Positions 9,830 to 48,600 of a stretch of DNA of 64,000 nt are shown in pieces. The DNA comes from an uncultured Pseudomonadales bacterium. Lineage in GTDB: Bacteria; Patescibacteriota; Microgenomatia; UBA1400; PJMF01. The stretch is from positions 53,530-117,529 of the forward strand of contig CAZWKL010000001.1 of NCBI GenBank assembly GCA_964633875.1, written 5' to 3'. Position 1 is the stretch's first letter. Every line of letters begins with the position of its first letter. Under the pieces are notes generated by a model. It was not told the origin of the DNA. It did not search any database and saw only the letters and a program-made list of their open reading frames with translations. The position numbers and the translations under genes are program-made.

Positions 9830-9848
9830 AGATTAAAGGAGCGCCAAT

Positions 9849-14573: not shown

Positions 14574-14631
14574 GTTTGCAATTTTTGCGATACTATAAAA
14601 TTTTGTAACAATTAATGTTTAAAGAGTCAGT

Positions 14632-32595: not shown

Positions 32596-33540
32596 ATGAG
32601 TCAAGATATCTCAAACTACCCGGTCATGAACCCAACCTTCCAGATGGAAGAGAAAAAACTGGCCGACAACCAAGCTATTGTGACGATTGAGCCACTTGAA
32701 AGCGGCTATGGTCACACCGTTGGCAATGCCTTGAGGCGGGTACTTTTAACTTCTTTGCCCGGACATGCCATTACTCAGGTGAGGGTTGAGGGCGCTGAGC
32801 ACCTCTACAGCACTTTGGAAGGCATGACCGAAGATGTGTTCGAATTATCGCTTAACATCAAGCAAATTAGAGTAAAATCGACTAGTAATGATCCGGGAAC
32901 ACTGAGACTTTCAGTTCAGGGTCCTGCTCAAGTCACTGCAGCTGACATTGAAGCTTCGGCCGGTTTTGAAATTCTCAACCCCGAGCTTCACTTGGCTACT
33001 TTAACAGCTAAAACCAATCTCGATCTGGAGATGACGGTTGAGGCAGGTTTGGGTTACGAAGTAGCTGATGAAAAAAAGGCCAGCGCCATTGGCGACATTA
33101 TTGTTGACGCACTCTATTCACCCATTGTTAAAGTTTCCTATGAAGTGGAACAAACCCGGGTGGGCCGCCGCACCGACTACGACAAAATTATTCTGGATAT
33201 TACTACTGACGGCAGCATCGAACCAATCGAAGCGGTCAAACAGGCAGCCAGGATTTTGGCCAAGCAATTTGTGCAAGTTTTTGAGCCCGTAGTAATTGAA
33301 GAAGAAGTGCATGAAGATGAACTTTCGCCTGAGGAGGCAGAAGTTTTGCGACTGACTGTGGAAGAACTGGATCTCCCCACCAGGATTGCCAATGCCCTGA
33401 GAAAAGGTGGTTTCAAAACAGTGGGTGACTTGGCCGGCGCGGATAAAGATGTAGTGGCGAAGGTGAAAAACTTAGGAGAGAAAAGCGTTGATGTTATCAA
33501 CAGCGCCTTGCAAAAGAAAGGCGTAAGCCTGGGAGAATAA
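32596..33540 (+). CDS. rpoA: DNA-directed RNA polymerase subunit alpha
   Basis: 314 aa. N-terminal dimerisation domain (IEPLESGYGHTVGNALRRVLLTSLPG) and C-terminal domain (VEELDLPTRIANAL...GFKTVGDL). Confidence 0.95.
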   Translation: MSQDISNYPVMNPTFQMEEKKLADNQAIVTIEPLESGYGHTVGNALRRVLLTSLPGHAITQVRVEGAEHLYSTLEGMTEDVFELSLNIKQIRVKSTSNDPGTLRLSVQGPAQVTAADIEASAGFEILNPELHLATLTAKTNLDLEMTVEAGLGYEVADEKKASAIGDIIVDALYSPIVKVSYEVEQTRVGRRTDYDKIILDITTDGSIEPIEAVKQAARILAKQFVQVFEPVVIEEEVHEDELSPEEAEVLRLTVEELDLPTRIANALRKGGFKTVGDLAGADKDVVAKVKNLGEKSVDVINSALQKKGVSLGE

Positions 33541-33541
33541 G

Positions 33542-34027
33542 ATGAGACACAGAGTACAAAAGCGCAAGTTTAACCGCGACACCAACAATCGCAAAGCCTT
33601 GTTGAGGAACTTGGTTCGTCAGTTGGTTGAGCATGGTTCAATTACTACCAGCGAAGCCAAAGCTAAAGAAACTAAAAGAGTAGCTGACAAATTAATTGGC
33701 AAAGCTAAAACTGACAACTTGGCTACCAGAAGAAAGTTGCACACTTTTTTTGGCAAGCGCGATGTGGTCAATACTTTAATTGAGCGGGTAGCACCGGTGT
33801 TTACCAAAAGAAAATCTGGTTTTACCAGAATTGTGAAAATTGGTAGTCGTCGTGGCGACAACAGCCCGGTGGTAAAACTCGAACTGGTGGAGCAACGAGA
33901 GTTATTGCATACTTTGCGAAATCCTGAAGCGAAAGTAGCAGCTAAAACCACCAAATCTGTCAAGACCACTAAAACTATCAGGGCGGCCACCAAGACAACT
34001 AAAACAACCAAGAAGAAGGCGGCATAA
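33542..34027 (+). CDS. rplQ: 50S ribosomal protein L17, with a Lys/Thr-rich C-terminal tail
   Basis: MRHRVQKRKFNRDTNNRKALLRNLVRQLVEHGSITTSEAKAKE... The tail is AKTTKSVKTTKTIRAATKTTKTTKKKAA. Confidence 0.9.
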   Translation: MRHRVQKRKFNRDTNNRKALLRNLVRQLVEHGSITTSEAKAKETKRVADKLIGKAKTDNLATRRKLHTFFGKRDVVNTLIERVAPVFTKRKSGFTRIVKIGSRRGDNSPVVKLELVEQRELLHTLRNPEAKVAAKTTKSVKTTKTIRAATKTTKTTKKKAA

Positions 34028-34030
34028 ATT

Positions 34031-34468
34031 ATGCAAAAAACTTACATGCACAAACCGGCTGATGTGAAAAGAGAATGGCACTTGATGGATGCTCAAGATC
34101 AGGTATTGGGTCGTTTCGCTACTCAGGTGGCAGAGAAACTCATCGGCAAGCACAAAAAAGAATTCACCCCTCATGTTGACGGCGGTGATTATGTGGTGGT
34201 TATTAACGCGGTTGAGATTGCGGTGACCGGCAACAAGAGAACTGACAAAAAATATTACCGTCATTCAGGTTTTCCCGGCGGCTTGAAAGTTCGCACTTTT
34301 GACGAACTTCAGCAGAAATTTCCTGAAAAAATTATTGAATTAGCCGTTAAAAACATGCTACCTAAAAATAAGCATCAAGATGAGCGCATGACTCGACTCA
34401 AAGTCTACGCTGGTAGTGAGCATAAGCATCAGAGCCAACTCACCGCTAAGGACAAGGGAGCAAAATAA
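34031..34468 (+). CDS. rplM: 50S ribosomal protein L13
   Basis: MQKTYMHKPADVKREWHLMDAQDQVLGRFATQVAEKLIGKHK... Canonical. Confidence 0.95.
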   Translation: MQKTYMHKPADVKREWHLMDAQDQVLGRFATQVAEKLIGKHKKEFTPHVDGGDYVVVINAVEIAVTGNKRTDKKYYRHSGFPGGLKVRTFDELQQKFPEKIIELAVKNMLPKNKHQDERMTRLKVYAGSEHKHQSQLTAKDKGAK

Positions 34469-34475
34469 GGAAAGT

Positions 34476-34991
34476 ATGGCATTAAAATTAGGCAAAAAAC
34501 AAAACCGCGTTAAGAAAATTATTAAGAAAGCCAGCCAAACCAATGTTCGCGCGGCGGGAGCAGACAGCGCTGTTAATTCCAACCTTACTCTGCCAACAGG
34601 TAGATTTACTGAGGGTCTGGGTCGTAGGAAAGTGGCTATAGCCAGGGTCAGGCTTTACGAGTCTAAGGGCGATTTTGTAGTTAATGGCCAATTAGTCACC
34701 GATTATTTTGCCGGAGTGATGAATGTAGTCAAGCTTTATAATCAGCCGTTTGAAATTACCAATACTAAAGACAAATTTGCCGTCACCGTGAAAGTGAGTG
34801 GTTCCGGACTGCCAGCGCAATTAGAAGCAATGGTTCACGGTATTGCTCGCGCTTTGGTTGAGTATGATCCGGAAAATCGGCCTCTTTTGAAACAAGCGGG
34901 CTTGCTCACCAGAGATCCGAGAATGAAGGAAACGCGCAAACCTGGCAGGGGCGGTAAAGCCAGACGCAAGCGTCAATCACCAAAGCGGTAA
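34476..34991 (+). CDS. rpsI: 30S ribosomal protein S9, with an N-terminal extension
   Basis: S9 core ending ...GGKARRKRQSPKR. The ORF track starts at 34416, overlapping rplM. The ATG at 34476 (MALKLGKK) has an AAGGAAAG RBS. The 3' end overlaps the convergent gene 34977..35378 by 15 nt. Confidence 0.88.
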   Translation: MALKLGKKQNRVKKIIKKASQTNVRAAGADSAVNSNLTLPTGRFTEGLGRRKVAIARVRLYESKGDFVVNGQLVTDYFAGVMNVVKLYNQPFEITNTKDKFAVTVKVSGSGLPAQLEAMVHGIARALVEYDPENRPLLKQAGLLTRDPRMKETRKPGRGGKARRKRQSPKR

Positions 34992-35378
34992 GGTGGGAAT
35001 TTTCCAGTCGCCTTTGGGATATCTTCTCTTGAGGTAGGCCATCATGTCATCCATAGTCCAAGTTTGCGTATCATCAAGCTCGTTTTTGTTTATTCTGGGA
35101 TTGGTGTAAACTTTGCCATTGCCCAACTGAATTTTGGTTACTCCTGGAGGCAAATGCTGAAAAATGATCACTCTGTACACGTTTTCGACTAATGGGCTTA
35201 AAGGAATTTTTGAACCTGTTTCTTCGTCAAAATAAAATCCAGAATTCAGCGCTCTGATGGCCTCATCAATTTTCAACGCCATTTGAATAATTTTTGCCTC
35301 TTGCTCTTCCCCCACATCCACCGCGTGAGGTTTTTTAGTAGGCAAGTTAAAATTTATTCCAAATATCTCAACCATCAA
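34977..35378 (-). CDS. Hypothetical soluble protein (133 aa), the terminal gene of the ABC-2 operon
   Basis: No TM segments and no recognisable family. Its start lies 10 nt downstream of the stop of the preceding permease, so it is probably co-transcribed. Confidence 0.35.
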   Translation of the reverse strand: MMVEIFGINFNLPTKKPHAVDVGEEQEAKIIQMALKIDEAIRALNSGFYFDEETGSKIPLSPLVENVYRVIIFQHLPPGVTKIQLGNGKVYTNPRINKNELDDTQTWTMDDMMAYLKRRYPKGDWKIPTLPLW

Positions 35379-35387
35379 TGCCTTTCT

Positions 35388-36215
35388 TTAACTACTAGCA
35401 CTACTATACCTTTTTAGGCTCCAATTCCAAAGCCAAAGGCTAAAAGTAAAAAAGCCAATTCCAAAAAAGCTGGCCATGACACCAGTGTAGGTGGGTGGCT
35501 GGTTGATGAGAATTTGACTGGGAATGGTGATCATCATGCCTACTGGTACCAAGAAAAACAATGCCAAGCGAATTGGTTCCAGGTAAATGGTGACGGGAAA
35601 CCGAGCCATGTCCATCAGGTCGCGATAAAGCCAGGTGGCGCCATCGATTTCGGTGGTGAGGATGCCGATGGCTAGGATGATGATGTGTAGCGCTGCAGCA
35701 ATGAGGAAAGCATTGGCGAGCAGAAGCAAGTACCAGGCTAGTGAAGCAACGGTGATGGTTAGCTCAAGCTGCAGCGCAATCCAAATACTAATCACCGTAG
35801 TAGGAATGACAAAAACAGCATCATTGAAATCGGGGTGGCCAGTGAGGGTTTGAAAAAGCGTATTAACTGGCTTGGCCAGGAGAAAATCCAACTCACCGCG
35901 CCTAACTTGTTGAGAAAACATGTACACTCCTCGGAAAAACACCTGAGACATCAAATCAATGAACTGATAGGTTAGGAAAAAGACAATCATTTCGTCAGTG
36001 GTGTAACCGGCAAAAGTATCAATAGTTTCTCTGATCAAAAACAAAACCAAAAGCGACATGGCAAACCTGATCACTTTGCCGGTGAAAAATAACGAATTTG
36101 TCCAACGATTGACAAAAGTTTGTTGCAGCACGTTGCTGGCCAGAATTCTCCAGACTTTAAAGTGGGTTTTCAGTCGTTTTAAGTTCATTATATTCCTATT
36201 GTCCGGCAGCATCAT
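35388..36215 (-). CDS. ABC-2-family transporter permease paralog F (6 TM)
   Basis: ~265-aa polytopic membrane protein sharing with five neighbours a conserved G-E/K-L-D-F-[YL]-L-x-[KR]-P loop (GELDFLLAKPVN) and a C-terminal ...YSSASS motif. Resembles COG4587/COG3694 'ABC-type uncharacterized transport system' permeases. Confidence 0.6.
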   Translation of the reverse strand: MMLPDNRNIMNLKRLKTHFKVWRILASNVLQQTFVNRWTNSLFFTGKVIRFAMSLLVLFLIRETIDTFAGYTTDEMIVFFLTYQFIDLMSQVFFRGVYMFSQQVRRGELDFLLAKPVNTLFQTLTGHPDFNDAVFVIPTTVISIWIALQLELTITVASLAWYLLLLANAFLIAAALHIIILAIGILTTEIDGATWLYRDLMDMARFPVTIYLEPIRLALFFLVPVGMMITIPSQILINQPPTYTGVMASFFGIGFFTFSLWLWNWSLKRYSSASS

Positions 36216-36987
36216 AACTTTTCAAGCCCCGGCCCCAAATATATTTCACCAGCCAGCCAAAAAATACAATCCAAGCCAAGAGCGTGAGCGTGTGTGTGAG
36301 CAATTCCTGGGGATTGAGTTTATCAAGAAACAACTGAGTCTGCATAAAGGCAAAATAAGGGAACGGAGTCATAAAAATAATCTTTTGCAGTAGTTCTGGC
36401 AAAATATTGAGAGGGAAGAGTTTGCCGGCAGTGATGTTAATGATCATGAAAAAGAGAAACCTTGGACCCCAAGTGTCCGGACTCCAAAAACCAAAAGCGC
36501 CAAAAAGCAAAGTAATCAGAAAATTCAAAATAATGCCACCCATCATCCAAACCAGAAATAGCAAAAAATTGTTTAAGCCAGGCAAAAAGATGACCGGCTG
36601 AAAAATCAAAAATAGTAGGGAAGTTTCAATGACCAAAAACCCGACATTTTTTAATTTATCGGCAATTTCTTGAGTGGCAAAATAGCCATAAACATTCATT
36701 GGTTTAATTAAAAACTGACTTAACTCACCGGAATAAACAATATTGGCTAAATTATTGAGAGCGGTAGCAATAATCGCGCTTTGCAAAAAAGCGGCCAGAA
36801 AAATATAGGTGATCATTTCTTGCTGATTGTAGGCAAAAGCGCTCTCAGTGGCGCCAAAAATGACCGTCCAGAGGGTCAGCGCCATGATGGTGGAGAGAAA
36901 CTGGCGAAAGCGCCACATCAAGATACTGGCCCGGTAGACCAGACCGTTTTCCCAAGCCACTTTGGTTAAAACCCAATATTTTCGCAT
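36196..36987 (-). CDS. ABC-2-family transporter permease paralog E
   Basis: Same architecture. Loop GELSQFLIKPMN; C-terminus ...KSYDAAGQ. 20-nt overlap with paralog F. Confidence 0.6.
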   Translation of the reverse strand: MRKYWVLTKVAWENGLVYRASILMWRFRQFLSTIMALTLWTVIFGATESAFAYNQQEMITYIFLAAFLQSAIIATALNNLANIVYSGELSQFLIKPMNVYGYFATQEIADKLKNVGFLVIETSLLFLIFQPVIFLPGLNNFLLFLVWMMGGIILNFLITLLFGAFGFWSPDTWGPRFLFFMIINITAGKLFPLNILPELLQKIIFMTPFPYFAFMQTQLFLDKLNPQELLTHTLTLLAWIVFFGWLVKYIWGRGLKSYDAAGQ

Positions 36988-37004
36988 GATGATTACCGCG
37001 CAGC

Positions 37005-37080
37005 CCTTTTTTCACCCTTTTTCACAGATTTTCACGCTTTTTGACCCAGGCTTTCACGCTTTTTTCACAACTTTTCACGC
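37005..37080. repeat. Seven phased (T)nTCAC / GTGA(A)n heptamer repeats at 10-12-bp spacing, lying between the ATPase stop and the permease E start
   Basis: Plus strand: cccTTTTTTCACccTTTTTCACagaTTTTCACgcTTTTTGACccaggcTTTCACgcTTTTTTCACaacTTTTCACgc. TTCAC cores at 37011, 37021, 37031, (37041 TTGAC), 37053, 37064 and 37074. The last copy overlaps the ATPase stop codon (TGA at 37077..37075 on the minus strand). Confidence 0.6.
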
Positions 37081-38079
37081 CGCTTGAGTATCACTGAAGA
37101 CTTCACGGATAATGGCCTCAATTGGCGGCTCTTCAATATTCAAATCTTCTACCGGCAGCTTGTTGAGAATCTTGCCTGCCTGGGTAGTGGCTTGTTTGCG
37201 CGGCACCAGCAAAGTAGCCGTGTAAGCAGAACCGTCTTGGTGGTACTCTTTGATCTCACCAAATTTTTTGAGGTCTTTTTCTTTGACTTCCTGGCTAAAA
37301 ACCAGGGACAGAATTTTGTTGCGGGCGTACTTGTCAATAATATTTTGCAGCTTGCCGTCAAAAACTTTTTTGCCCTCATCAATAATAATGGCCCGCTCAC
37401 ACAGCTCCTTGACGTCGTCCATGTAGTGACTGGTGAGAATAATGGTAGCGCCGAACTCTTGGTTGTACTGCTTGATGAAATCGCGCAGAGTTTTCTGCAT
37501 CACTACGTCCAGGCCAATGGTCGGCTCATCCAGAAACAGCACTTTAGGATTGTGCAGCAGGGCGGCGATCAGTTCGCACTTCATTCTCTGGCCGAGTGAA
37601 AGCTTGCGCACCTGGACATTGAGAATTTTACGCACATCCAGCAAATCCACCAGTTTGTCGAGTGTTTTTTGGAACTCTTGATCAGGAATTTCGTAAATGG
37701 CTTTGTTGAGCAAGAAAGTTTCCATGGCCGGCAGGTCCCACCAGAGTTGATTTTTTTGGCCCATCACCAGCGCAAACTGCTTTTGAAACTCCGGTTTGCG
37801 ATCCCAAGGGTTGTAGCCGAGTACACTAACCGCGCCGCCGGAAGGATAGAGCAAGCCCGAGAGCACTTTCAGGGTAGTAGTTTTGCCGGCGCCGTTTTGG
37901 CCAATAAAGCCCACTACTTCACCTTCAAAAATTTCAAAACTAATGTCATCGACCGCCCTGACGGTTTCGTACTCGCGGTGCCAGAGCGACTTAATCGAAC
38001 CCCAAAGCCCCGGCTCTTTGTGATAAACCTTAAAGTGTTTTTTGAGATTTTTGACAGAAATGATTGTTTTTTTCGACAT
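37075..38079 (-). CDS. ABC transporter ATP-binding protein (COG4586-like) with a C-terminal extension
   Basis: Walker A GQNGAGKTT. Q-loop, signature LSLGQRMKCELIAAL, Walker B LFLDEPTIGLD and the H-loop are present. 334 aa (~90 aa beyond the NBD). It sits in the middle of six permease genes. Confidence 0.85.
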   Translation of the reverse strand: MSKKTIISVKNLKKHFKVYHKEPGLWGSIKSLWHREYETVRAVDDISFEIFEGEVVGFIGQNGAGKTTTLKVLSGLLYPSGGAVSVLGYNPWDRKPEFQKQFALVMGQKNQLWWDLPAMETFLLNKAIYEIPDQEFQKTLDKLVDLLDVRKILNVQVRKLSLGQRMKCELIAALLHNPKVLFLDEPTIGLDVVMQKTLRDFIKQYNQEFGATIILTSHYMDDVKELCERAIIIDEGKKVFDGKLQNIIDKYARNKILSLVFSQEVKEKDLKKFGEIKEYHQDGSAYTATLLVPRKQATTQAGKILNKLPVEDLNIEEPPIEAIIREVFSDTQAA

Positions 38080-38106
38080 AGATATTGTTGTATTGTAACG
38101 TAATTT

Positions 38107-38907
38107 TTACGAGCTTGCTGAGGAATATTGCTTCAAACTGTGTTGCCACACGATTTTGCTGAGAGTGACGCTACCCACCGCTGCCACTGCCGACAAGAGC
38201 AGTAGCCACCAACTACCCCTGCCCAGCAAAAACAAAGTGGGAATATAGCCGAAAAAGGCCATTGGAATCAAGGTAACCGCCACCAGCTGAAAACTGAAGG
38301 GAAACAACGGCTGGGGATATTGGCCAAAATCGCTGATTTTCATGAAAACTTCAAAAACTTGCGAAGCTCTGGTGAGGTAGAAAGCCATGGAAGAATACAA
38401 AGACACAATGCCGTAGCAAACCACGATCCCCAGTACAAACGCCACCAAAAACATTAACAGGCCAGCCGGCGTAATCACCGCTTTTAAAGTAAACATTTGG
38501 TAAAAAAGCAGCAGCGCCAAGCTTATCATCAACACAAATTGCTCCACTTCCGGCTTGGAGTAAAACGACATAAATTGAGAATCAACCGGTTTGGTCAGGT
38601 AAAAATCCAACTTTCCTTGCCGAATATCGAAATAAACAAACTCCCGTGCGCCTTTCATAAAAAGTACAAAACAGCAGGTAAAAATTAGGTGAAAAACCAG
38701 AAAGAGCAAATAGCCCTCTGCTTCCGACCAGCCAGCCACCACAGGAGTAATGGTGTAAGCAATCTTGACCATAAAAAACATCACCACAACGTAGGCGGGA
38801 GCGTAAAGCGACTGCACCACAAAGTTGACCTTGTAAGCCATGATGGCGTTGAGGTGATAAATGAAAAATTTTCGGTAAAGATTGAGGTACTTGAGCGCTT
38901 TTTTCAT
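38107..38907 (-). CDS. ABC-2-family transporter permease paralog D
   Basis: Loop GKLDFYLTKPVD; C-terminus ...LKQYSSASS. 6 predicted TM helices. Confidence 0.6.
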   Translation of the reverse strand: MKKALKYLNLYRKFFIYHLNAIMAYKVNFVVQSLYAPAYVVVMFFMVKIAYTITPVVAGWSEAEGYLLFLVFHLIFTCCFVLFMKGAREFVYFDIRQGKLDFYLTKPVDSQFMSFYSKPEVEQFVLMISLALLLFYQMFTLKAVITPAGLLMFLVAFVLGIVVCYGIVSLYSSMAFYLTRASQVFEVFMKISDFGQYPQPLFPFSFQLVAVTLIPMAFFGYIPTLFLLGRGSWWLLLLSAVAAVGSVTLSKIVWQHSLKQYSSASS

Positions 38908-39702
38908 TTAAATACCCGTGCTTTCATAACTTTTAGAGCCGGCGCGCCAAAGTAAGTCGCGCAAGTAAGTGACGACAACGATCCAGCCGCAAAGAATCCC
39001 CAACCCCGCCAGAGCGGTAGTTTTTGGCAGTTCGTGATTCATCATCTGAATGGGCGTGTAAGCCAGGTGTTGAAAAGGCAGAAAGAAAGAGATCTGCTGA
39101 AACAACTGAGGAAAAAAGCTAATCGGTACCAAAACACCTGACAAAAATCTAATAACGATCAGCAGCGACCAGCGGATAGCAAAAACATCGTTAAACCAGA
39201 AACACAAGCCGGAAATCAAGCTGTACAAACTGAAAGTGAAAATAAAAATTATCGGCATGAAGAGCAAGAGCAAGGCAAAATCACCCAAGCCGGCGTTGAG
39301 TGAGTAGCCCAACAGATACAAAATTGGCAAGATCACCAGGAACTTAAATAAAGTTTCTAAAATTATCGTCCCGCTTTCAAAAGAGAAGTAATGCCAGACG
39401 GGCGAAATGGGTTTGAGCAAAAACTTGGACAAGTAGCCCAGCTTGATATCTTCATCAATGTACCAAGTGTGTAGGTTGGACAAACTGTACAGAATGGCCG
39501 CCAGGAAAAAATAGCGCACGGTTTGGTCTGAGGCCATGATTTGATTGTCACCGCTTTTTTGCACGCCAATCCAAACCAGCGACATCAAAATTACCATGGT
39601 GGCGTACTTGAGTGTCCGCAGCACAAAGTCGAAGCGATACTGCATCGTGTCTTGAATGCTGATTTTGGTGACCAAAAGATACTTTTTCATTTTTTGCGCC
39701 AA
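38908..39702 (-). CDS. ABC-2-family transporter permease paralog C
   Basis: Loop GYLSKFLLKPIS; C-terminus ...SKSYESTGI. Directly abuts paralog D with a 0-nt gap. Confidence 0.6.
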   Translation of the reverse strand: MAQKMKKYLLVTKISIQDTMQYRFDFVLRTLKYATMVILMSLVWIGVQKSGDNQIMASDQTVRYFFLAAILYSLSNLHTWYIDEDIKLGYLSKFLLKPISPVWHYFSFESGTIILETLFKFLVILPILYLLGYSLNAGLGDFALLLLFMPIIFIFTFSLYSLISGLCFWFNDVFAIRWSLLIVIRFLSGVLVPISFFPQLFQQISFFLPFQHLAYTPIQMMNHELPKTTALAGLGILCGWIVVVTYLRDLLWRAGSKSYESTGI

Positions 39703-39723
39703 TCAAGGTACCAAGCAAGGCCT

Positions 39724-40527
39724 TTAATTCCCCACGCTGGTGTATTTTTTGATTGAAATTTTGTAAAACCAACCTGCGAAAATTATAAACCCTAAAGTAA
39801 AAATCAAGAAATACAATATGAGGGCGTAATTTTCTCTGCCCAGCAAAGCCTCGCTCGGCAAACTAGTCACTAAAGCCAAGGGGAAAAGAGTGGTAAAAAC
39901 AAACGAGGCCACGCCAGTGTAAATTGAGCGGGGAAACTGATAAATATCCCTCAGAGAAGGCATAATACTAGTGACGTTATCCAGTCTCTCAAACCAAAAG
40001 GCGATCGTGGCCGTTACAAACCAGCCGGTGTAAAGGAAAATTAAGCTGATCAACACTAAAGCAATGAAAAGGGCGATGTGTACGATAGAAAGCTCGATCT
40101 GCAGGTTTTTAAGCGCCCAAATGAGCACAAATATGCCAATAAGGAGCCTGGGAACGTTGTCATAGCTGTTGCGGTGAACCAATAAGAGGTAAGTGGTGTT
40201 GATTGGCCGGATGAGTAGGTCGGAGAGTTGGCCGGAATAAATCATCCGCCGGAAACGCATCATGTTGGGCGCGAACCAACCCCAAGTGAAAGCATCCAGG
40301 ATAGTGTAGGTGGCCACCACCAAGTAAAGTTCCATCTCGCTCCAGCCGGCGATGTTGTCATTGACACCAATCAACAGCCTGAAGAAAAAGAAATTAAAAG
40401 CTGTCCACATCACCGAGACAAAGCTCCAGAAGAAAAAATCAGTCCGGTAGGTCATCATTTGCATTAGCATCAGCTTGCGAAAGTGCCAAAAAAGTTGCCA
40501 GTATTTTTTCAGTCCCTTGTTTGTCAT
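39724..40527 (-). CDS. ABC-2-family transporter permease paralog B
   Basis: Loop GQLSDLLIRPIN; C-terminus ...KKYTSVGN. Directly abuts paralog A. Confidence 0.6.
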   Translation of the reverse strand: MTNKGLKKYWQLFWHFRKLMLMQMMTYRTDFFFWSFVSVMWTAFNFFFFRLLIGVNDNIAGWSEMELYLVVATYTILDAFTWGWFAPNMMRFRRMIYSGQLSDLLIRPINTTYLLLVHRNSYDNVPRLLIGIFVLIWALKNLQIELSIVHIALFIALVLISLIFLYTGWFVTATIAFWFERLDNVTSIMPSLRDIYQFPRSIYTGVASFVFTTLFPLALVTSLPSEALLGRENYALILYFLIFTLGFIIFAGWFYKISIKKYTSVGN

Positions 40528-41325
40528 TTAGCCTCCCACAGAAGAATACTGTAGCCTGGCTTTTTTCCAGACGAAAGCGGTCAAGGCAAGCATACCTAAA
40601 ATTACTCCGGTCATATAAAGATAATCAAATGGAACTAAACTGTACTGTCCCTGCAAGAGCATAACAGGGACGACAAACAAGTACTTGAAGGGCAGCAGCT
40701 CGACGATGTTACGCATCAGTTCAGGCAGAAAAATCACTGGCATAATGCTGCCGCTGAATAGCGCCACTGTTACCCACTTAAAGTGCTCCAATCCGTTGGA
40801 GCCTTCCAGCCAGAAAGTTAGCAGCACAATCCAGAGGCCAAAAATAAATTGGATCAGGTGGGCGGCGAAAAGGACCAGCAAAAATTGCGGCGCGTTGGCA
40901 AAAAAGTCCGGTAGGCTGAAGCCGGGAATGAAGAAGTTGATAATGAAAACTAGCAGGCCCAGGACGGGCAAAAAGAGCAAGAAAGCAAAAAACTTGCTGG
41001 CCACGCTGGAAGTATAGATTTCCAACAGGTAAGAGAAAGGTCGAATCAGGTAGAAATCGATTTTGCCGTCGCGGATTTGTTCAGCCCGCCAGCCTTCAAA
41101 GTGAACAACAGTCAAGCGGTCAATCACCGCCACCATCACGTAATACTGCATCACCTGGATCAGCGAGTAGTCTTGAATGGTGGCCGCGCCACGGTAGATA
41201 GCCTGCCAGATAAAAATCATGGTGATGTAGGGGACCAAGTCCATCAACAGCCACAAAAAAGTTTCCGCCCTGAACTGCAGAGAGGTCATCAGACTGAGCC
41301 GGAAAAAAGCCAGGTATTTTTTCAT
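40528..41325 (-). CDS. ABC-2-family transporter permease paralog A, the first gene of the operon
   Basis: Loop GKIDFYLIRPFS; C-terminus ...RLQYSSVGG. 6 TM helices. Confidence 0.6.
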   Translation of the reverse strand: MKKYLAFFRLSLMTSLQFRAETFLWLLMDLVPYITMIFIWQAIYRGAATIQDYSLIQVMQYYVMVAVIDRLTVVHFEGWRAEQIRDGKIDFYLIRPFSYLLEIYTSSVASKFFAFLLFLPVLGLLVFIINFFIPGFSLPDFFANAPQFLLVLFAAHLIQFIFGLWIVLLTFWLEGSNGLEHFKWVTVALFSGSIMPVIFLPELMRNIVELLPFKYLFVVPVMLLQGQYSLVPFDYLYMTGVILGMLALTAFVWKKARLQYSSVGG

Positions 41326-41385
41326 GATTGGTCAGCGCTATCAGGGTGTAATGAGGCAGCACTAATTTAATTATTGTAGCAGCAA

Positions 41386-41422
41386 AAACCCCGACAGGCG
41401 CCGGGGTTATTTTTGGTTTTTT
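41386..41422 (-). terminator. Bidirectional intrinsic terminator (hairpin ACCCCG-N8-CGGGGT flanked by T/A runs), terminating hup
   Basis: Plus strand aaaaACCCCGacaggcgcCGGGGTtatttttggtttttt. On the minus strand the same hairpin is followed by TTTTTGCTGC. Located 17 nt downstream of the hup stop. Confidence 0.5.
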
Positions 41423-41438
41423 AGTTTTGGGCGCGGTT

Positions 41439-41714
41439 TTACCAAACCTTCACTTTGAGCGGTTTGCCGACGCGGAAATTGACCACCCGGTGACCTTTGA
41501 TAGTCTGGCGCTTGTTCTCATCGCCAAAAGGCACCACTTCTTTATCGCCAACTTGGCCGATATAAAAGGTCCCGAATCCGGAAATGACTACTTTTTCTCC
41601 TTTTTGCAGTGATCTGCTGATCTCCTCAAAAAGCGCTTCAATGGCATCGTCTGCCGCTCTTTTGGTGAGGTGAGCTTTTTTGGCAACGATTGAAACAAGC
41701 TGAGATTTTGTCAT
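41439..41714 (-). CDS. hup: DNA-binding protein HU
   Basis: 91 aa: MTKSQLVSIVAKKAHLTKRAADDAIEALFEEI...GEKVVISGFGTFYIGQ...VNFRVGKPLK. HU/IHF fold signature (GFGxF, arm with R/K/P). Confidence 0.85.
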   Translation of the reverse strand: MTKSQLVSIVAKKAHLTKRAADDAIEALFEEISRSLQKGEKVVISGFGTFYIGQVGDKEVVPFGDENKRQTIKGHRVVNFRVGKPLKVKVW

Positions 41715-41760
41715 GTAAACTTTCTAGATTACTTATTTGTACTTAGCTGCTGAACTATGA

Positions 41761-41788
41761 ATTATAGCGGTTGAGCATTGAATGTAAA
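41761..41788 (-). promoter_or_regulatory. Putative sigma70-type promoter for hup (-35 TTTACA, 16-bp spacer, -10 TATAAT on the minus strand)
   Basis: Minus-strand reading: TTTACAttcaatgctcaaccgcTATAAT. The predicted transcription start is ~40 nt upstream of the hup ATG (41714). Confidence 0.45.
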
Positions 41789-41829
41789 GGGCAATTTCCG
41801 CGATAGCAAGCGCATTTATTATGTGTTTA

Positions 41830-42225
41830 TTATATATAATTGTGCCGTTTTAAGAAAGCGATAAATGCTCCCAGCAAATCGTAGCCGAGATCGCGAAAAG
41901 TGCCGTATCTGCCTGGTACGAAGGACTGGTGAAACTCATCCGACAAGGCGTAAAGGAAGGTAATGAAAAAAGCGATTTGCCAGATTTGGAAAGGGCCGTG
42001 TTTTTTCTGGGGGATGGTTTGTTGAATACCCCAATGCAGGAGCAGAAAAAGGACAGCATAAACAAAAATATGGGCTAGTTTTTTGAAGGCATAATCGCTC
42101 CAGGAAACAGCCAGTCCGGGCAGATTGGTTTGGGAGGAAAGCAGGAAGATGAAAATGGCCCAGAGTACGGAAGGTCCGAAGGCTTTAGCCCACAGCGCTA
42201 ATGATTTGAACAATTCTTTTTTCAT
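41830..42225 (-). CDS. VanZ-like family membrane protein
   Basis: Motif ALSDEFHQSFVPGRYGTFRDLGYD matches the VanZ signature (DExxQxFxPGR...D). 3-4 TM helices. The ORF track extends to 42264; the ATG at 42225 (MKKELFK) was chosen. Overlaps the 3' end of the upstream gene. Confidence 0.6.
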   Translation of the reverse strand: MKKELFKSLALWAKAFGPSVLWAIFIFLLSSQTNLPGLAVSWSDYAFKKLAHIFVYAVLFLLLHWGIQQTIPQKKHGPFQIWQIAFFITFLYALSDEFHQSFVPGRYGTFRDLGYDLLGAFIAFLKRHNYI

Positions 42226-43354
42226 ACAGTAACAAAACTCCGCTGGAGCTAATTGCGAACCCACCTAGTATAACATTTAGCAAGCTTTTCTGTGAGGGTG
42301 GTTGAGCCGGCGTCTTGGCGTAGATGGCCTTGCCGGTAGCTTGGGTTGGAGCATTGTTTTCAGAGGCGTTCTCAGGGGTGGCGGTGAAGTCAGGCAGTGG
42401 CTGGTTGGGGCTGGGGGTGGAAGTTTGGTGGGTGGTGGAGTTGGTGGGGGCGGTGGGGTTGGTGGAATTGGCGGTGGAACCTGGCTGGTTTTCGGTGGTG
42501 GAGCTGGTAGAGTTTTGGCCGCCAGGCGAGGTTTGCTGTGGGTAGATGGTTTCACCCTTGGTACAGCCAGAGTAACTGGCGGTGGCAACAGTCTCGCCGG
42601 TGGGGGTTTCGATAAAGACTGAATCGCCGGTGTTGTTGAGCATGGCCTGCTGCCAGGAGGTTTTCTGGGTTTGGCCTGGGGGGATGGCGCCTGAGAGGCC
42701 ACGGAAGTTGTTTTGTTCATCCCGGATTTTCCAGTTTTCCAGGTTGAGGGTGGTAGGGCCGTGATTTTTGATGATGATCCATTCCGGCTGGTTTTCCAAA
42801 GGGCAGGGGTGGATTTCTTCGATGGTGAGTTGAGGCGGAGCGGAACTGGGTGGCGGACTGGTGGATGGTGAAGGTGTGGGGGTGGTGGCAGCGGTGGGAG
42901 GAGGTGTGGGTGTGGGGAGCAGGTTGGGACTGCCGGGAGTGGGGTCGGTGAGGAGGAAGACATTTTCGTTGGTGGCGCGGCGGCTCCAGCTTTTGCCGGG
43001 GGTGGAAGTTTCGTACTGCATGGCGTCGATTTGTTCGCCACTGGCATTGTAAAGCACCACGCCGTCCGCGCCATTATTCAGCTTCATGGAAGATAGCTCA
43101 AAAACTGCGTAGCCACCGGCTTCCAGCGTCAGGTTGCCAATGGTGTAAATCAGAGCCGGCGAAGCCAGTTGGTCGTAGAGCGTCCAGCCAGTGAGATTCA
43201 CCGGCTCAATATCGGGATTGTGCAGCTCCACCCACTCCGGCCCGTCTTGGGGCTGGGGAAAAACTTCGGAGATGACGGGGGCAGCGGAGGCCGAGATGGG
43301 GAGAAGCAAGAAAAAGCACAATGCAATCGGAAAGATGAGCAACAAATGCGTCAT
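42185..43354 (-). CDS. Secreted protein with two lamin-tail domains (LTD), a Pro/Thr linker, an S/T/N-rich low-complexity region and a C-terminal hydrophobic anchor
   Basis: Signal peptide (LLIFPIALCFFLLLPISASA). LTD1 is ISEVFPQP..EWVELHNP..VNLTGWTLYD...NNGADGVVLYNASGEQIDAMQY. LTD2 is IEEIHPCP..EWIIIKNHG..LNLENWKIRD...NNTGDSVFIETPTGETV. The linker is PTPTPPPTAATTPTPSPSTSPPPSS. C-terminus ...LLNVILGGFAISSSGVLLLYEKRIV. Confidence 0.6.
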   Translation of the reverse strand: MTHLLLIFPIALCFFLLLPISASAAPVISEVFPQPQDGPEWVELHNPDIEPVNLTGWTLYDQLASPALIYTIGNLTLEAGGYAVFELSSMKLNNGADGVVLYNASGEQIDAMQYETSTPGKSWSRRATNENVFLLTDPTPGSPNLLPTPTPPPTAATTPTPSPSTSPPPSSAPPQLTIEEIHPCPLENQPEWIIIKNHGPTTLNLENWKIRDEQNNFRGLSGAIPPGQTQKTSWQQAMLNNTGDSVFIETPTGETVATASYSGCTKGETIYPQQTSPGGQNSTSSTTENQPGSTANSTNPTAPTNSTTHQTSTPSPNQPLPDFTATPENASENNAPTQATGKAIYAKTPAQPPSQKSLLNVILGGFAISSSGVLLLYEKRIVQIISAVG

Positions 43355-43407
43355 GGCTCTTTGATAGCACCAATTTCTGGCTTTAAGTGTAGAGGGACCG
43401 GAGTTCT

Positions 43408-45612
43408 CTAATGATGTCCCAAGATGTTCACAGAGTCTGAAGAGTCGGGATATTGAAGATTGAGATCATAAAGCAGGTTATACATCGTTACTTGAGCACG
43501 GAAAATGGGAGGGTAATCGGCGGAGCCGACAAAAAACTCTTCTTTAAATACCCCAGGCTCCACTTCTTTTTTGCTATAGATCATGGGTTTTATTTCAGCG
43601 TTGAAATATTGCAAAACCTCATCCCAATCTTCGCGGGCAATATCCCGCCGCATGTGCCAACTATCAAGCATTAAATAAACCAATTGGGTGAAGAAATAAT
43701 GAGGATCTTCTGTTGCTGGCCTGGAAAGCAAACCTTTCTCAAGCATGATTTGATTTAATGCCGGCATTTTTTCTTGATCATGTAAAAGTCCGGCAAAGTC
43801 ATAGAAGAGACGATTAACTAAATTATTGTTGAAATGATCTAAAATTTGCTCCCATTTCTCCGGCGGCACATTAGGCCAGACACCACCATCTCTCCAGAAC
43901 ATCTTTTCAAAGATATGATAAGCAGCATTCATATCATTTCCAGGATGAGTAGTCAGAATTCCGGCTTCAAGGAGCATGTTGGCGAAAGTTTCCAGTGACT
44001 GAGTAACCGAGGCCGGCGCATATGGTGGATCAATAGTAATATCTCTGGCAAATTCCTGATCGTCAACCAGATCTGTAAGTGGGGCAATTTCTCTGATAGC
44101 ACACGTTTTGTAGATATGCCAAGCTAGATTACTTCGGTCGTTTGCATTGAAATCTCCGGCGATATCAGAAAGGCGCTTAGTTACTAGAATGCTGGTGATT
44201 GCTTGAAACAAGCTGTTGTATTCATGTGGACCTTCCGTCCGCAGCACTTCCGAGTAAGCTACTCTCAGTTGTTTGGCTTCATCCTCATATTTCACTAATT
44301 TACTCTGCAAATCAAACAAAAGCTTCAATTCTTCGGTGTTATTTTCATTTAGCGCTTGTTTGAGTAGGAATGGTAAAAATTTCGGATTTCTTATTTGTTG
44401 AGAAACAAGTTTTTTTACAAAGCCTATAAAATTTTGACTGGCTTCTTCTCGCATGTGCTCGACAGTGCGCTGATAGGCAAACTCAGGATTGGTGGGGATT
44501 TCAGAAACCTTGTGCCAGGCATCTGTGTAATTAAGCAATTGCCACTCGTGCATTGGGTCAGTGATACCGATTTCATTAAGTGCGTCAGGGTTGCCTTCGG
44601 CAAATGGCTGCAGCCGGTTGGCATACCGCTCAAGATAAGTTGCTGCTAATTGTCTCATTTCTTCCCTGGTTTGCTGCACTCTCTCACGTTTGCTGGTGGC
44701 TTCCTTATAAGCCCGAGCTGCTTCAGGAAAATTTTGCTCAAACAAGATTGTCAAAGCAGTATTGGGATATCGGTCAAAGGCAGCCGCTCGTTCACCTGGT
44801 TCCATATCCATCATGCCGGTGGTTGGTTGCTCACGAAATCTGATTAAGTCGTAGTGTCTGATACCTTCATCGGGCAAGGCTTCATTGATTCCTCCGGGAA
44901 GATTGACGCCTATCTCAGCCAGTCTTTCTTTAATAATTAAAGCAGAGCCTCCTGGAGCCAGAGCAGAAACAGCTTTAATTTCTACTCCCATCGCTCTAGC
45001 GCCGGTGACGCCGACTTTTTGAATAATTGAAACATTGACATCCATATTGGAGATATCTTTAGGTTCAGAAAAGCCACCGATGTTTTCGGCGCTGATTTGC
45101 AGGGTTGAAACCAGAGTAATAAAGTCAAGATTGGCTGCATTTGCTAGCAAATGCAGTTTGTCGACAAAACCAGCAAAATAATCTTCAAAACTTTCTCCTT
45201 CGCGCTTTTCCGCTTCGTAGCAATTTCTGGCTAGAATCTTGAGGTGAATCGCTGACCCTTCAATCACTTCTCCTTGAGGAGTTTCTTTTCTTCTTGCCCA
45301 GGTACTGAGAGGGAAGAGGTGTTCTTTACCTTGGAAATGCTTTAGCCACAGTTGGTGTAGGGTAGGAGCTGAAACTTCGTAAGCACCACTACCCTCCGGC
45401 GGATAAGGACGTTTGAGAGCGGCTGCGGCGCCAGCCCTGAACTCCGGATTTCCCACCAGCCTGGTGACAGGATAACCGGCAACTGCAGTACCGACAAGGG
45501 CTGCCGCTGCTTTGAGAAAAGTTCTGCGAGACACTCCTGGTTTTTGAGTTTCTTCCTCAGGCTTAGGTCCCCGATCTTTTTTTCTGGAGCGCTTGGTTTC
45601 TGTTGGCATCAC
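43408..45612 (-). CDS. Hypothetical 734-aa exported or membrane-anchored protein with a twin-arginine-type signal (SRRTFLKAAAALVGTAVAG)
   Basis: Basic N-terminus followed by a canonical S-R-R-x-F-L-K motif plus a hydrophobic h-region. No recognisable catalytic motifs. 1-nt overlap with the upstream GT-C gene. Confidence 0.4.
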   Translation of the reverse strand: MMPTETKRSRKKDRGPKPEEETQKPGVSRRTFLKAAAALVGTAVAGYPVTRLVGNPEFRAGAAAALKRPYPPEGSGAYEVSAPTLHQLWLKHFQGKEHLFPLSTWARRKETPQGEVIEGSAIHLKILARNCYEAEKREGESFEDYFAGFVDKLHLLANAANLDFITLVSTLQISAENIGGFSEPKDISNMDVNVSIIQKVGVTGARAMGVEIKAVSALAPGGSALIIKERLAEIGVNLPGGINEALPDEGIRHYDLIRFREQPTTGMMDMEPGERAAAFDRYPNTALTILFEQNFPEAARAYKEATSKRERVQQTREEMRQLAATYLERYANRLQPFAEGNPDALNEIGITDPMHEWQLLNYTDAWHKVSEIPTNPEFAYQRTVEHMREEASQNFIGFVKKLVSQQIRNPKFLPFLLKQALNENNTEELKLLFDLQSKLVKYEDEAKQLRVAYSEVLRTEGPHEYNSLFQAITSILVTKRLSDIAGDFNANDRSNLAWHIYKTCAIREIAPLTDLVDDQEFARDITIDPPYAPASVTQSLETFANMLLEAGILTTHPGNDMNAAYHIFEKMFWRDGGVWPNVPPEKWEQILDHFNNNLVNRLFYDFAGLLHDQEKMPALNQIMLEKGLLSRPATEDPHYFFTQLVYLMLDSWHMRRDIAREDWDEVLQYFNAEIKPMIYSKKEVEPGVFKEEFFVGSADYPPIFRAQVTMYNLLYDLNLQYPDSSDSVNILGHH

Positions 45613-48600
45613 TATTCATGGTATGAGAATTTGGGGTTAAAAGCAATGTTGATTAGTAGAATTGCTGTGGTGGTTAAAATCAGGAATCCAGCAAATTCAA
45701 GTAATTGGGGCCAGAAAAAAACGATTACATGATAAGAACCCTCAGGAAGAACCCATGCATTGGCCCAACCATTATAGATGACATGATCTAAAAGGTGTAG
45801 ATTTGACAAATTGATAGCTATCCAGCCATTTTCATAAGTTTGTGATAGGGCAACCAGGCCGATATCTGGATTGTCGACCTTAAAACCATATTGATATGTA
45901 CCAACTTTCCATAAATTACTGATTTTGGCATGATTTATAATTTTCTCGGATTCACTTTGTGGTTTGATCACAATCCTACTTATAAAATCGAGCGGAACAG
46001 GATAAATTTCAATGTTTTCAATAATATTTTCACTGATTTCAGAGCCAAATGATCGGTTTTCCCAACTCAAATAATAGCCCTCATTTTCCAAATAAGGCCA
46101 TGGCAAAATTCCATAACTTATTTCTCGAGAGCTGTCGGGAATTAGTTCTTCAAGATCCGAGCGTCCGGCAGCGATGTTTTGCAGGTTTAGTTTAATTGTT
46201 CTACCGGAGATATTCTCAATTTGCCACCTCATTAGATACGAGCTGTGTTGATTTAGATCGAAAAGGTCAGCGCCATCGCAGGCAACACCCAAATCAACAC
46301 TTTGATAAACAACATTATCTGCAACTATTTTTTTAATTGATTCGTTTTTTCGCATTAAATCACAATTTGACACACTATTGGGGTTGGCGAATTCAGGACT
46401 GTAAGGTATGGAGCTGATCTGAATAACTAATTCAGAGCTAGGCTTCAAATCAACTGTGTGTTCTTGAGTCATAGAATCCCATGACTCAGTTGATAAAGAA
46501 ATTGATGCGACTCTATTAGAGTCGATAAACCTCTGGTCTTCTTCTTCTTCTATCTCAGCAAAATTAAAGGCAGATATTACTACGGGTCTATTTATTTGAA
46601 GATTAGCTTCGGTTTGAATAGTTTGTCCTTGTTGGATCTCAATTTGTTTTTCACCTATTTCTATAATAACGTTTTGAAACTCTAGTGGTATTGGTAAAGC
46701 GACGGAGGGGAGGGATGGCAGAGCAAATTGATCAGAGCCAGTTTTTATAATGATCTGTTGATTAAAATCGACTGTCACTAAACCATTTGTAAAATTGAGA
46801 CTAATCTGAGCCATATGTTCTTCTCCTTGTGCTAATGGCGGAAGAATTAATTTTGCATTATCAGTTAGTTCAGCTATGTTTTCCTTGATAATAAGCTGAT
46901 TATGTCCATATTCAACAAAAGGCGTTTGATCTTTTAGGTAATCTGCAAATGGGTACATTATTGGCTGTTTATCTATAAATAGATTGTGGTTACCAGACAC
47001 ATATGGGCCGTTGCCTTGATAGATAGGATCTCGCTTGCTGTAAGTGACATCGCCAATTGCTAAAACTAATGAGTCGGGAACGTAGACGAAAGATTTGCTT
47101 CCCACCAAGAGCCTAACATCATAAATTGATAGAAAATTCTCCTGCCAAGCAGGTTTCAAGCCTATTTCAGCTAATAAGTTTTTAATTTCTGGTTTTTTAA
47201 CTGTATCAGTGTTGTCATTAGGATTAATAATACTTTCATCTAAAAGTAGATAGGAGATATCAAATTTTTCTAGCGTTTCTATAAAGGTTTGTGGGTCATT
47301 TCCATATAAGGCTGCAGAAAGTTCTTTGTAGAGAGTTTCATTATGAGGATTCCAGCGGTCAAAGTCTCTGACTGTCATTGGTTGATTCATGCCAAACCAG
47401 ATAAATCCAGCTCCTTCGTAACCCCAATCATAAAATTCCCAACCTATAGGAGTTTGCAATGGTAAGTTAATTATTCTGGCTTGATCGGGCTGTGTTTCCA
47501 GCCAGTCATAAAGGGAAAAATAAGGTTGAGGAATATCATTTAATAATTTTTTGTTGATAAGCTGACCTTGCAATAGGGGTAAACCATACAAGCCCAAAAC
47601 AAAACTAACAAGGAATACTAAGGAAATGTTAATTGCCAAAGATACTTTAATAATTTTTCTAATAAATTTCATAACTTCATTCATAAAAACTGAAAAATAA
47701 ACTGAGGTTGAGAACATAAGTAAAAGAGAAAACTTAGTGAAAGGAGTCCTCAGTCCTTCTCTAAAGATAGCAACATTATCTCTTAACCAACCGAAAATAT
47801 AATTAAAAGGCGGATTCATATTCATCAGCATAAATATGGATAAGAGTATGATTGGCAGCAAAGCTGTTTCCACCTTCTTTTTTTTAAGCACACTGACTGT
47901 CAACCCAATCAAAGAAAAAGCGAAAATTGCATATCCAATTGAAATTATCCAAATATTGCCAATGTGTTCTTTCCACTGCGGTAGTAAATCGCCGAATCTA
48001 CCATCATTTTTGAGATCTAGCCAGTTGAAAAGGAAATTTCGGAAAATAGCTACATCTTGAATTTTTCCGAAATTAGCGTTGTGTAAGAATGATTCTGGAG
48101 AAAAAAGTCGGTTAATGTGTGAATTAGCAGGAATTTTAGCCGCATCTGTTAATAAAAAGTACAGATTTGGCAGTAACCAAAAACTATTGGCTGCTAAGGT
48201 TGCACCAATAACAAACAGGCTTTTTTTGAAGAAATTTCTTTTTCGTTCTTCCAGATTTAAAACTATTAAAAACAAAATCAGAGCTCCGAAGTAAGCGAAC
48301 CAAAGTTGAGAGGCATAAGCCATTGGAGTGGAGAAGAGGGAAATAACAAAAAATGCAAGTAAATATTTTGGATTTTCTGAATATAAAGACTTTATTGTGA
48401 ACAAGAAGAGCCAGCCCAAAACTGAGTATTGAACCGCGAACATCTCAAACACTACGTAAAAATGTTGGACAGTTCCAAGATTGAAAATATAAACTAAAGC
48501 TCCTAAAAATGCCGAAGCATGAATAATGTATCCTGATTTTTCTTCAAAAATCCCATTTTTAATAAAATAATAAATTCCCAACGGACCCATAATAAAACAG

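Follow-up and report, generated by a model that had tools for sequence, protein, structure and literature searches.

The window analysed here, a 64,000-nucleotide stretch of contig CAZWKL010000001.1 numbered from its first letter, carries on its minus strand eight consecutive genes between hup and rpsI: permease genes A, B, C and D, a gene N for an ATP-binding cassette (ABC) ATPase (the nucleotide-binding domain, NBD), permease genes E and F, and a gene for a small soluble protein, S. By sequence comparison, the permeases fall into three pairs of a type 1 and a type 2 subunit, A/B, C/D and E/F, rather than a set of six equivalent paralogs. From the way these pairs and the ATPase gene are distributed over related loci, we consider it probable that three alternative heterodimeric type V (ABC-2) transporters share one ATPase homodimer. 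An earlier note, made from the letters of the sequence, had described the eight genes, their coordinates and the single ATPase, all in agreement with the list of open reading frames (ORFs); it had proposed a shared motor serving either combinatorial pairs or a large complex. The idea of a common motor gains weight from relatives with one to four pairs per ATPase gene, some of these pairs being on the opposite strand and lacking an ATPase gene of their own; free mixing and a single complex are both less likely than fixed pairs.

Permease pairs and the single ATPase gene

In a hidden Markov model (HMM) search, all six permeases scored above the gathering threshold of PF06182 (ABC2_membrane_6; 22 bits, 229 model positions), with 63.6 bits for A, 145 for B, 59.9 for C, 118.7 for D, 70.5 for E and 124.7 for F. 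The matches span model positions 1-229 in A, 2-229 in B, 35-229 in C, 4-229 in D, 2-229 in E and 3-229 in F. The assignment of the six to one ABC-2 family was therefore correct, and the idea that they might belong to unrelated families can be dismissed. Along the operon the Pfam scores are weak and strong in turn. All-vs-all BLAST separated type 1 (A, C and E; mutual E-values 1e-20 to 1e-33) from type 2 (B, D and F; 1e-22 to 1e-24), with much weaker matches between the types (1e-5 to 1e-12); the closest paralogs of A, for instance, are C and E. Identity between paralogs is 17-28% throughout, in keeping with the old divergence of the copies that had been noticed.

The gene order is (1,2)(1,2)-N-(1,2), all on the minus strand. 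Permease A (40528-41325, 265 amino acids) is the type 1 and permease B (39724-40527, 267 amino acids) the type 2 member of the first pair, the start of B directly abutting the stop of A. In the second pair, the start of permease D (38107-38907, 266 amino acids, type 2) likewise abuts the stop of permease C (38908-39702, 264 amino acids from a TTG start, type 1). The true start of C is probably the ATG at 39690, giving 260 amino acids as in locus L010 of a sister species. Genes A-D immediately precede the ATPase gene, separated by gaps of 0-33 nucleotides. Beyond the ATPase gene (37075-38079, 334 amino acids), the core pair consists of permease E (36196-36987, 263 amino acids, type 1) and permease F (35388-36188, 266 amino acids from the called ATG, type 2). 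The 20-nucleotide E/F overlap given previously applies to the longest ORF of F, which reaches 36215 (275 amino acids); with the called ATG at 36188 there is instead a gap of 7 nucleotides, so that the intra-pair gaps are 0 (A/B), 0 (C/D) and 7. The statement that gaps were 0-27 nucleotides throughout does not hold, the one between the ATPase gene and E measuring 87 nucleotides.

The sole ATPase matches PF00005 at 92.8 bits. Its translation appears to hold the complete set of catalytic motifs, with Walker A (GQNGAGKT), signature (LSLGQ), Walker B with its Glu (LFLDEPT) and H-loop (TSH). It is 73-99% identical across the clade and has diverged far less than the permeases (mean distance 0.29 vs 0.62-0.86). 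Neither the window nor the examined 18-20 kb loci yielded a second ATPase of this type.

The shared loop motif is indeed present in 6/6 permeases, in the form G-x-[LI]-[DS]-x-x-L-x-[KR]-P. When 109 permeases from all six orthogroups were aligned, eight columns only were conserved at 80% or more (Y9, R28, G99, L105, P108, P199, P216 and Y262 in B numbering), and the G, L and P of the motif were conserved at 97-100%. The tail Y-[ST]-S-[AV]-[SG]-[SGN], which had been ascribed to all six, was confirmed in A, B, D and F and is absent from C (YESTGI) and E (YDAAGQ); its Tyr is the only family-wide residue of the C-terminal tail.

An AlphaFold2 model of B (predicted local distance difference test, pLDDT, 88.2; predicted template-modelling score, pTM, 0.87) was compared with solved structures by Foldseek. 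The best matches were Wzm (6oih, 7k2t, 6m96) and TarG (9cfl, 6jbh), with TM-scores of 0.56-0.62 and probability 1.00; they include chains 6oih_C, 7k2t_B, 9cfl_A and 6jbh_C, with ABCG25 and ABCG2 lower in the list. As judged from this model, the permease fold is that of the type V (ABC-2) exporter class. The helix layout was also taken from the model, Kyte-Doolittle hydropathy being too crude for a count of transmembrane helices (TM), and in it the loop motif directly follows the second long helix. In type V transporters, the coupling helix touches the ATPase at the region after the second long helix. By analogy with these, the cytoplasmic motif loop (TM2-TM3) may provide the coupling, by docking on the ATPase that the permeases share. 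Searches by sequence were less informative: when the permease alignment was run as a profile against PDB sequences, nothing meaningful came up (the sole match, LRRTM at E=0.08, is noise), and no NCBIfam model matches the permeases.

Taken together, the proposed mechanism would run as follows. The product of the ATPase gene would form a nucleotide-binding homodimer, which would join a type 1 and a type 2 PF06182 subunit in three alternative assemblies, N2·A·B, N2·C·D and N2·E·F. A/B and C/D would be ancient extra modules, placed between hup and the ATPase gene and inherited as units. The motif loop common to all six would dock on the shared ATPase, and divergence of the rest of the subunits to 17-28% identity would fit differing cargo specificities. 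We favour this mechanism because the pairs behave as units and the canonical unit of one ATPase and two permeases stands alone in relatives, because the ATPase gene accompanies only A/B and C/D in L003/L014, and because opposite-strand pairs in L086 and L103 have no ATPase gene of their own. At the level of the locus there is one ATPase gene for 2-8 permease genes.

Several points weigh against it. Protein contacts and stoichiometry are predictions from gene content, and transport direction and substrate are no more than guesses. The fold evidence comes from B alone, modelled as a monomer, and the coupling role of the motif loop from analogy only. The ATPase census of this genome covers the 64-kb window, and paralogs elsewhere are possible. 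The trees presented below are simple neighbour-joining (NJ) trees that carry no support values, and the distance correlations given with them are affected by gene adjacency. Finally, no functional study and no characterised member was found in the literature on PF06182, the corresponding COG numbers or Patescibacteria ABC-2 transporters, where the association with ppGpp riboswitches was the one relevant finding.

A series of layouts at one locus

The first contig relatives (loci are designated L plus a number) were obtained from B homologs: L003, L005 and L007. Orthologs of A/B are present in all three, with A 34-46% identical, those of C/D in L003 and those of E/F in L005 and L007. Species-representative genomes were then scanned with an alignment of B orthologs, from which Bacillales sequences were left out as too divergent. 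This gave 24 Patescibacteria loci, by their record titles Pacebacteria, Woesebacteria or Microgenomates-like; NCBI puts one in phylum Minisyncoccota. Many of the metagenome-assembled genomes recorded as L010, L011, L013, L014, L016, L019, L022, L025 and L029-L031 are titled (uncultured) Pseudomonadales bacterium. These titles look like mislabels, as gene content and synteny match the Patescibacteria, Pacebacteria and Woesebacteria records of the same scan.

The synteny VanZ > hup > cluster < rpsI < rplM was found in 24/24 loci. Sixteen have the layout AB-N-EF and four AB-CD-N-EF (L010, L018, L029, L030), to which L031 is added, its sequence being cut after N. One locus, L014, on the same contig as L003, has AB-CD-N without E/F, and in two (L025, L027) the sequence ends after B. 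A contig of 1.41 Mb holds one more 6:1 locus, L035. Scanning metagenomes with F orthologs provided another 80 loci, annotated by family HMM and BLAST. Counting the non-duplicate ones that are complete from hup to F, with L070 and L074 placed by hand (their E gene was missed by the automatic filter), 19 loci are 2:1 (hup-N-E-F), mostly more distant (F 39-45% identical) with L053, L062 and L070 nearer (50-58%); 12 are 4:1, either AB-N-EF or CD-N-EF; two are 6:1 (L043, on the same contig as L035, and L103, with one pair inverted); and one, L086, is 8:1.

In total, about 60 related loci form a graded 2:1-8:1 series beside hup, in a layout survey covering Patescibacteria and Bacillales. The neighbourhood survey that the earlier note had suggested thus brought out the 6+1 layout among others, and its view of 6:1 as unusual has to be qualified: this layout is no one-off, as it recurs at no fewer than seven distinct loci, and 8:1 exists in L086. 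Orthologs of C are found in L003, L010, L018, L029, L030, L031, L035 and L039-L059, those of E in nearly all related loci, 2:1 loci included, and a protein search with F returned more than 100 ortholog clusters at 47-67% identity; F orthologs dominated its matches, and other phyla were not reached.

A Pfam check of the 8:1 locus L086 (2879-10786) showed one ATPase gene and eight PF06182 genes, which form four weak/strong pairs; two of these pairs lie on the opposite strand. Within 18 kb there was no other ABC ATPase. A gene for a 23S-rRNA-intervening-sequence protein (PF05635) lies between its ATPase gene and E. L103 (3748-10783) has six permease genes with one inverted pair. In L028 (2784-10022), A and B stand about 7 kb apart, with unrelated genes of differing orientation between them (an M19 dipeptidase, an APH-type kinase and others); a pair can therefore be separated and both genes nevertheless retained. 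In L020 (9193-9992), permease A is represented by two overlapping ORFs, from a frameshift, a pseudogene or an assembly error.

Extra pairs are always gained or lost whole, in the interval from hup to the ATPase gene; among the related loci surveyed, none showed an extra subunit without its partner. This bears on combinatorial assembly, in which any type 1 subunit would combine with any type 2, so that as many as nine heterodimers could work with the shared ATPase and cover more specificities than three fixed transporters. Nothing bars any of the six from the motor in such a scheme, since all keep the presumed docking motif and the C-terminal Tyr, and the six subunits are probably co-expressed from one strand. 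We nevertheless regard it as unlikely, because gain, loss and duplication always affect an adjacent type 1 and type 2 gene together, the intra-pair gaps are so short, the trees of the two subunit types mirror each other, and distances correlate better within pairs than across them. With the ATPase controlled for, within-pair distance correlations are 0.81 (A-B) and 0.73 (E-F) and cross-pair ones 0.50-0.68, values that are confounded by gene adjacency and come without a significance test. The excess agrees with fixed partners, as weak evidence.

The NJ trees of type 1 and type 2 each contain three deep clades, in mirrored arrangement, so that the phylogeny, like the all-vs-all alignment, answers the earlier question of pairing with three type 1 + type 2 pairs. 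The sole pair of the 2:1 loci falls in the E/F clade, and the paralog clades reach as far back as the divergence from the Bacillales pair. From the mirrored trees and the position of the 2:1 pair we conclude that N-E-F is the ancestral core, equivalent to a canonical N-P1-P2 unit (P1 and P2 being its two permeases), and that the extra pairs arose by whole-pair duplication. In an NJ tree built from A+B+N, the 6:1 loci are interspersed with the 4:1 ones, a pattern suggesting that C/D has been lost repeatedly.

With N-E-F intact in its canonical order, the extra pairs could in principle use ATPases encoded elsewhere, the linked one serving E/F alone and the 6:1 ratio being an accident of placement. 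In some ABC families an unlinked ATPase is the norm (PMC7658222), and 64 kb of this genome were covered. Three observations make this quite improbable: A-D stand immediately upstream of the ATPase gene on its own strand; the ATPase of the AB-CD-N locus L003/L014, where E/F is absent, must serve A/B and/or C/D; and these small genomes show no other such ATPase in the window or in the 18-20 kb loci.

Tight clustering and presumed co-transcription would also be expected of one large machine, uniting the six permeases and several ATPase copies in a single complex. ABC transporters of solved structure combine two membrane domains with two ATPase domains. Wzm/Wzt and TarGH follow this rule, and relatives carry from one to four pairs in differing subsets (AB+EF, CD+EF, AB+CD), which misfits an obligate complex; we hold such a machine to be highly improbable.

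All seven transporter genes are judged functional. Relative to the sister species L010, dN/dS is 0.068 for A, 0.043 for B, 0.039 for C, 0.076 for D, 0.017 for N, 0.122 for E and 0.110 for F. The seven transporter genes are under strong purifying selection and no copy is decaying. Redundant or decaying duplicates, with one working pair and the others lineage-specific leftovers, are barely credible: low pairwise identity was the only thing found in their favour, and opposed to it are a dN/dS of 0.04-0.12 in every permease, intact ORFs and motifs, paralog clades as old as the Bacillales split, and orthologs of each pair across species whose B proteins share just 38-54% identity. Pseudogene-like duplicates, a possibility raised at the outset, were rejected on dN/dS, the extra pairs being conserved orthogroups.

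The 87-nucleotide spacer between the ATPase gene and E contains a repeat array (37009-37078, minus strand) of five exact GTGAAAA copies and one GTGAAAG, about 10-11 nucleotides apart, the first GTGAAAA copy including the ATPase stop codon. Five of the 22 GTGAAAA occurrences in the whole window sit within these 70 nucleotides. The array is expanded to about eight copies in the sister species (L010, about 5600-5700); the remaining relatives lack both spacer and array, and there the ATPase stop abuts the start of E. In the comparison of window 34977-36987 with L010 5666-7708, dS is 0.9-1.2 and protein identity 64-85% for E, F and S; for A-D and the ATPase, dS is 0.44-0.76 and identity 88-99%. This higher dS and lower identity suggest that the segment downstream of the repeat spacer has had a separate history, by recombination.

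Comparison with known ABC systems

The closest known arrangement is the canonical COG4586/COG4587/COG3694 system, which belongs to the same PF06182 family, has both subtypes and corresponds as N-P1-P2 to the N-E-F part of the window. The ATPase of the Radiobacillus deserti operon is 39% identical to N; its P1 finds its best match in type 1 (A orthologs, 94 bits) and its P2 in type 2 (B, 93 bits). The window differs in having three P1 and three P2, with the extra pairs upstream of the ATPase gene, and so does not have the exact 1+1+1 composition. In Firmicutes, operons behind ppGpp riboswitches combine one natA-like ATPase gene with COG3694 and COG4587 genes, their function being unassigned (PMC6003355). 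The earlier note's statement that 1+2 is the ordinary layout elsewhere is borne out by these operons, by that of Radiobacillus and by the 2:1 Patescibacteria loci. Unlike the ykkC subtype 2a (ppGpp) riboswitch operons, the window gave no Rfam match at E<=1 in 33000-43500, neither a riboswitch nor any other RNA.

Wzm/Wzt and TarGH resemble the B model in size and helix layout, about 250-280 residues being aligned, but the sequence identity of Wzm and TarG to B is just 12-17%. Moreover, Wzm and TarG are homodimers made from one gene, whereas a heterodimer is predicted for the membrane module of the window, and Pfam recognised in N no carbohydrate-binding domain of the Wzt type.

The ATPase itself is most like DrrA and ABCA NBDs. 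Its best NCBIfam match is the drrA subfamily (TIGR01188), at 201.5 bits vs a cut-off of 312.45, and the nearest solved sequences are NBD1 of ABCA3, ABCA4 and ABCA1 (E-values 1e-49 to 1e-38). It nevertheless stays below the drrA cut-off, and the permeases are neither DrrB nor ABCA membrane domains. LanFEG transporters have, like each unit proposed here, one ATPase and two different ABC-2 permeases; they differ in that N scores 117.5 bits with TIGR03740 vs a cut-off of 309.75, and in that the present locus is a fixed core and not a mobile accessory. Membership of N in the lantibiotic immunity, DrrAB and GldA families was rejected on NCBIfam scores, all below cut-off.

ATPases that energise several membrane modules, as we propose for the window, are known among importers. 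Group II ECF transporters share EcfAA'T modules. Shared ATPases are also documented for type I ABC importers (MsiK, MsmK and MsmX; PMC7658222, PMC4519317). In contrast to the ABC-2 exporter class and single cluster of the window, both kinds are importers with other membrane folds, and their ATPase gene is usually unlinked. Our search of the literature found no description of a shared ATPase for type V (ABC-2) systems, nor of a motor and its modules in one cluster.

Flanking genes, possible cargo and significance

The hup gene, for an HU DNA-binding protein (41439-41714, minus strand; from the ORF list, with PF00216 recorded on orthologs), is the constant upstream neighbour of the transporter cluster by synteny in all related loci, and a promoter-like site with 11/12 matches lies 5' of it at 41788-41761. 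The hairpin and T-run reported after hup are real: a GC-rich, terminator-like hairpin (AACCCCG...CGGGGTT, 41387-41408), with T-runs on both strands, occupies the spacer between hup and permease A. Such a spacer is not universal. In L003 (6915-7190 / 7190-7990) and L018 (8895-9170 / 9164-9982) it is absent and the stop codon of hup touches or runs past the first codon of permease A, so that hup and the transporter genes may share a transcript in such relatives, unlike in the window, where the hairpin lies between them. Inspection upstream of each start revealed no Shine-Dalgarno pattern accounting for the ATPase:permease stoichiometry.

Downstream, rpsI (ribosomal protein S9, 34476-34991, plus strand; 171 amino acids as called, PF00380) forms the convergent boundary in the window's clade. 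Its longest ORF (34416-34991, plus strand) has a GTG start and an N-terminal extension and would encode 191 amino acids, the 171-residue product of the gene callers beginning at 34476.

The gene for S, an orphan protein of 132-133 amino acids (34977-35378, minus strand), does overlap the 3' end of rpsI by 15 nucleotides with its own 3' end, and the absence of a recognised family also holds: S has no Pfam, NCBIfam or PHROG match. Its model (pLDDT 71.6) has no fold match in the PDB. Two homologs were found among 5.8 billion proteins, and S occurs only in the window, L010 and L005/L012. It is coding yet fast-evolving, with a dN/dS of 0.23 and 64% identity to L010, where N reaches 99%. The slot between F and rpsI is itself variable: it is empty in many loci, holds a 696-amino-acid gene on the opposite strand in L035 and a Mutator-type transposase gene in L030, and spans 1.1-1.4 kb in L019, L020 and L033. 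S is probably lineage-specific cargo of this slot, outside the transporter. As a conserved component of the system it was ruled out by its restriction to the closest relatives and by the variability of the slot.

Upstream of hup on the minus strand (41830-49702), the window encodes VanZ, a surface protein with a lamin-tail domain (LTD) and long Pro/Thr/Ser-rich linkers, a GT2, a 734-amino-acid protein with a faint, sub-cut-off TAT-signal match, and a 1104-amino-acid membrane protein with a faint, sub-cut-off match to the GT-C of AftD. The G+C fraction is 0.36 at 46-50 kb vs about 0.45 elsewhere in the window. In L030, a gene for a 437-amino-acid GT-C of the PMT family (14196-15509; PF02366, 25.9 bits) is inserted between E and F in their orientation, overlapping each of them, and the Mutator-family transposase gene is downstream of F.

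In every genome sampled, the locus is part of the core and holds a fixed position. Genes for lantibiotics or bacteriocins were not found nearby, the neighbours being hup, VanZ, the LTD protein, GT2, SecA, FtsEX and ribosomal proteins. An accessory role in immunity or drug resistance is disfavoured by this fixed core position, by the lack of bacteriocin genes nearby and by the sub-cut-off lantibiotic, DrrA and GldA scores; a bacteriocin- or lantibiotic-immunity-like role, to which the earlier note had alluded, finds no support, since the syntenic position is that of a fixed core and the lantibiotic and DrrA models are far below their cut-offs. As a weak guess, which we rate between doubtful and unlikely, the cargo might be an envelope lipid or a polyprenyl-linked sugar or glycan that is flipped or exported. 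Four weak hints lead to it: the Wzm/TarG-like fold, the ABCA-like ATPase, the genes upstream of hup and the PMT insertion in L030. The link to glycosylation is itself weak, leaning as it does on synteny that is generally high in small genomes and on one insertion at one locus.

In this family, the PF06182 permeases and N-E-F as a canonical unit are known; what is new is the presence of three pairs per motor, an arrangement recurrent in Patescibacteria and not unique to the window. PF06182 is widespread and has no known substrate, and these ultra-small genomes devote about 6 kb to its members, at a chromosomal position that ranks among the best conserved. This suggests a housekeeping function in the envelope. 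A bolder view, which we think rather unlikely, is that of a plug-in system in which one ATPase, at a fixed site by the ribosomal-protein cluster, would energise one to four interchangeable heterodimeric modules for distinct lipids or polyprenyl-phosphate-linked glycans. If true, it could supply the flippase step for nearby surface glycosylation of the GT-C/PMT type or, alternatively, allow cells unable to make their own lipids to scavenge them from hosts. The 2:1-8:1 series constitutes a natural comparative experiment on the gain and loss of modules by lineage. Since six co-resident subunits would have to fit one ATPase, the locus may also be a good system in which to read the ATPase-coupling code of type V transporters.

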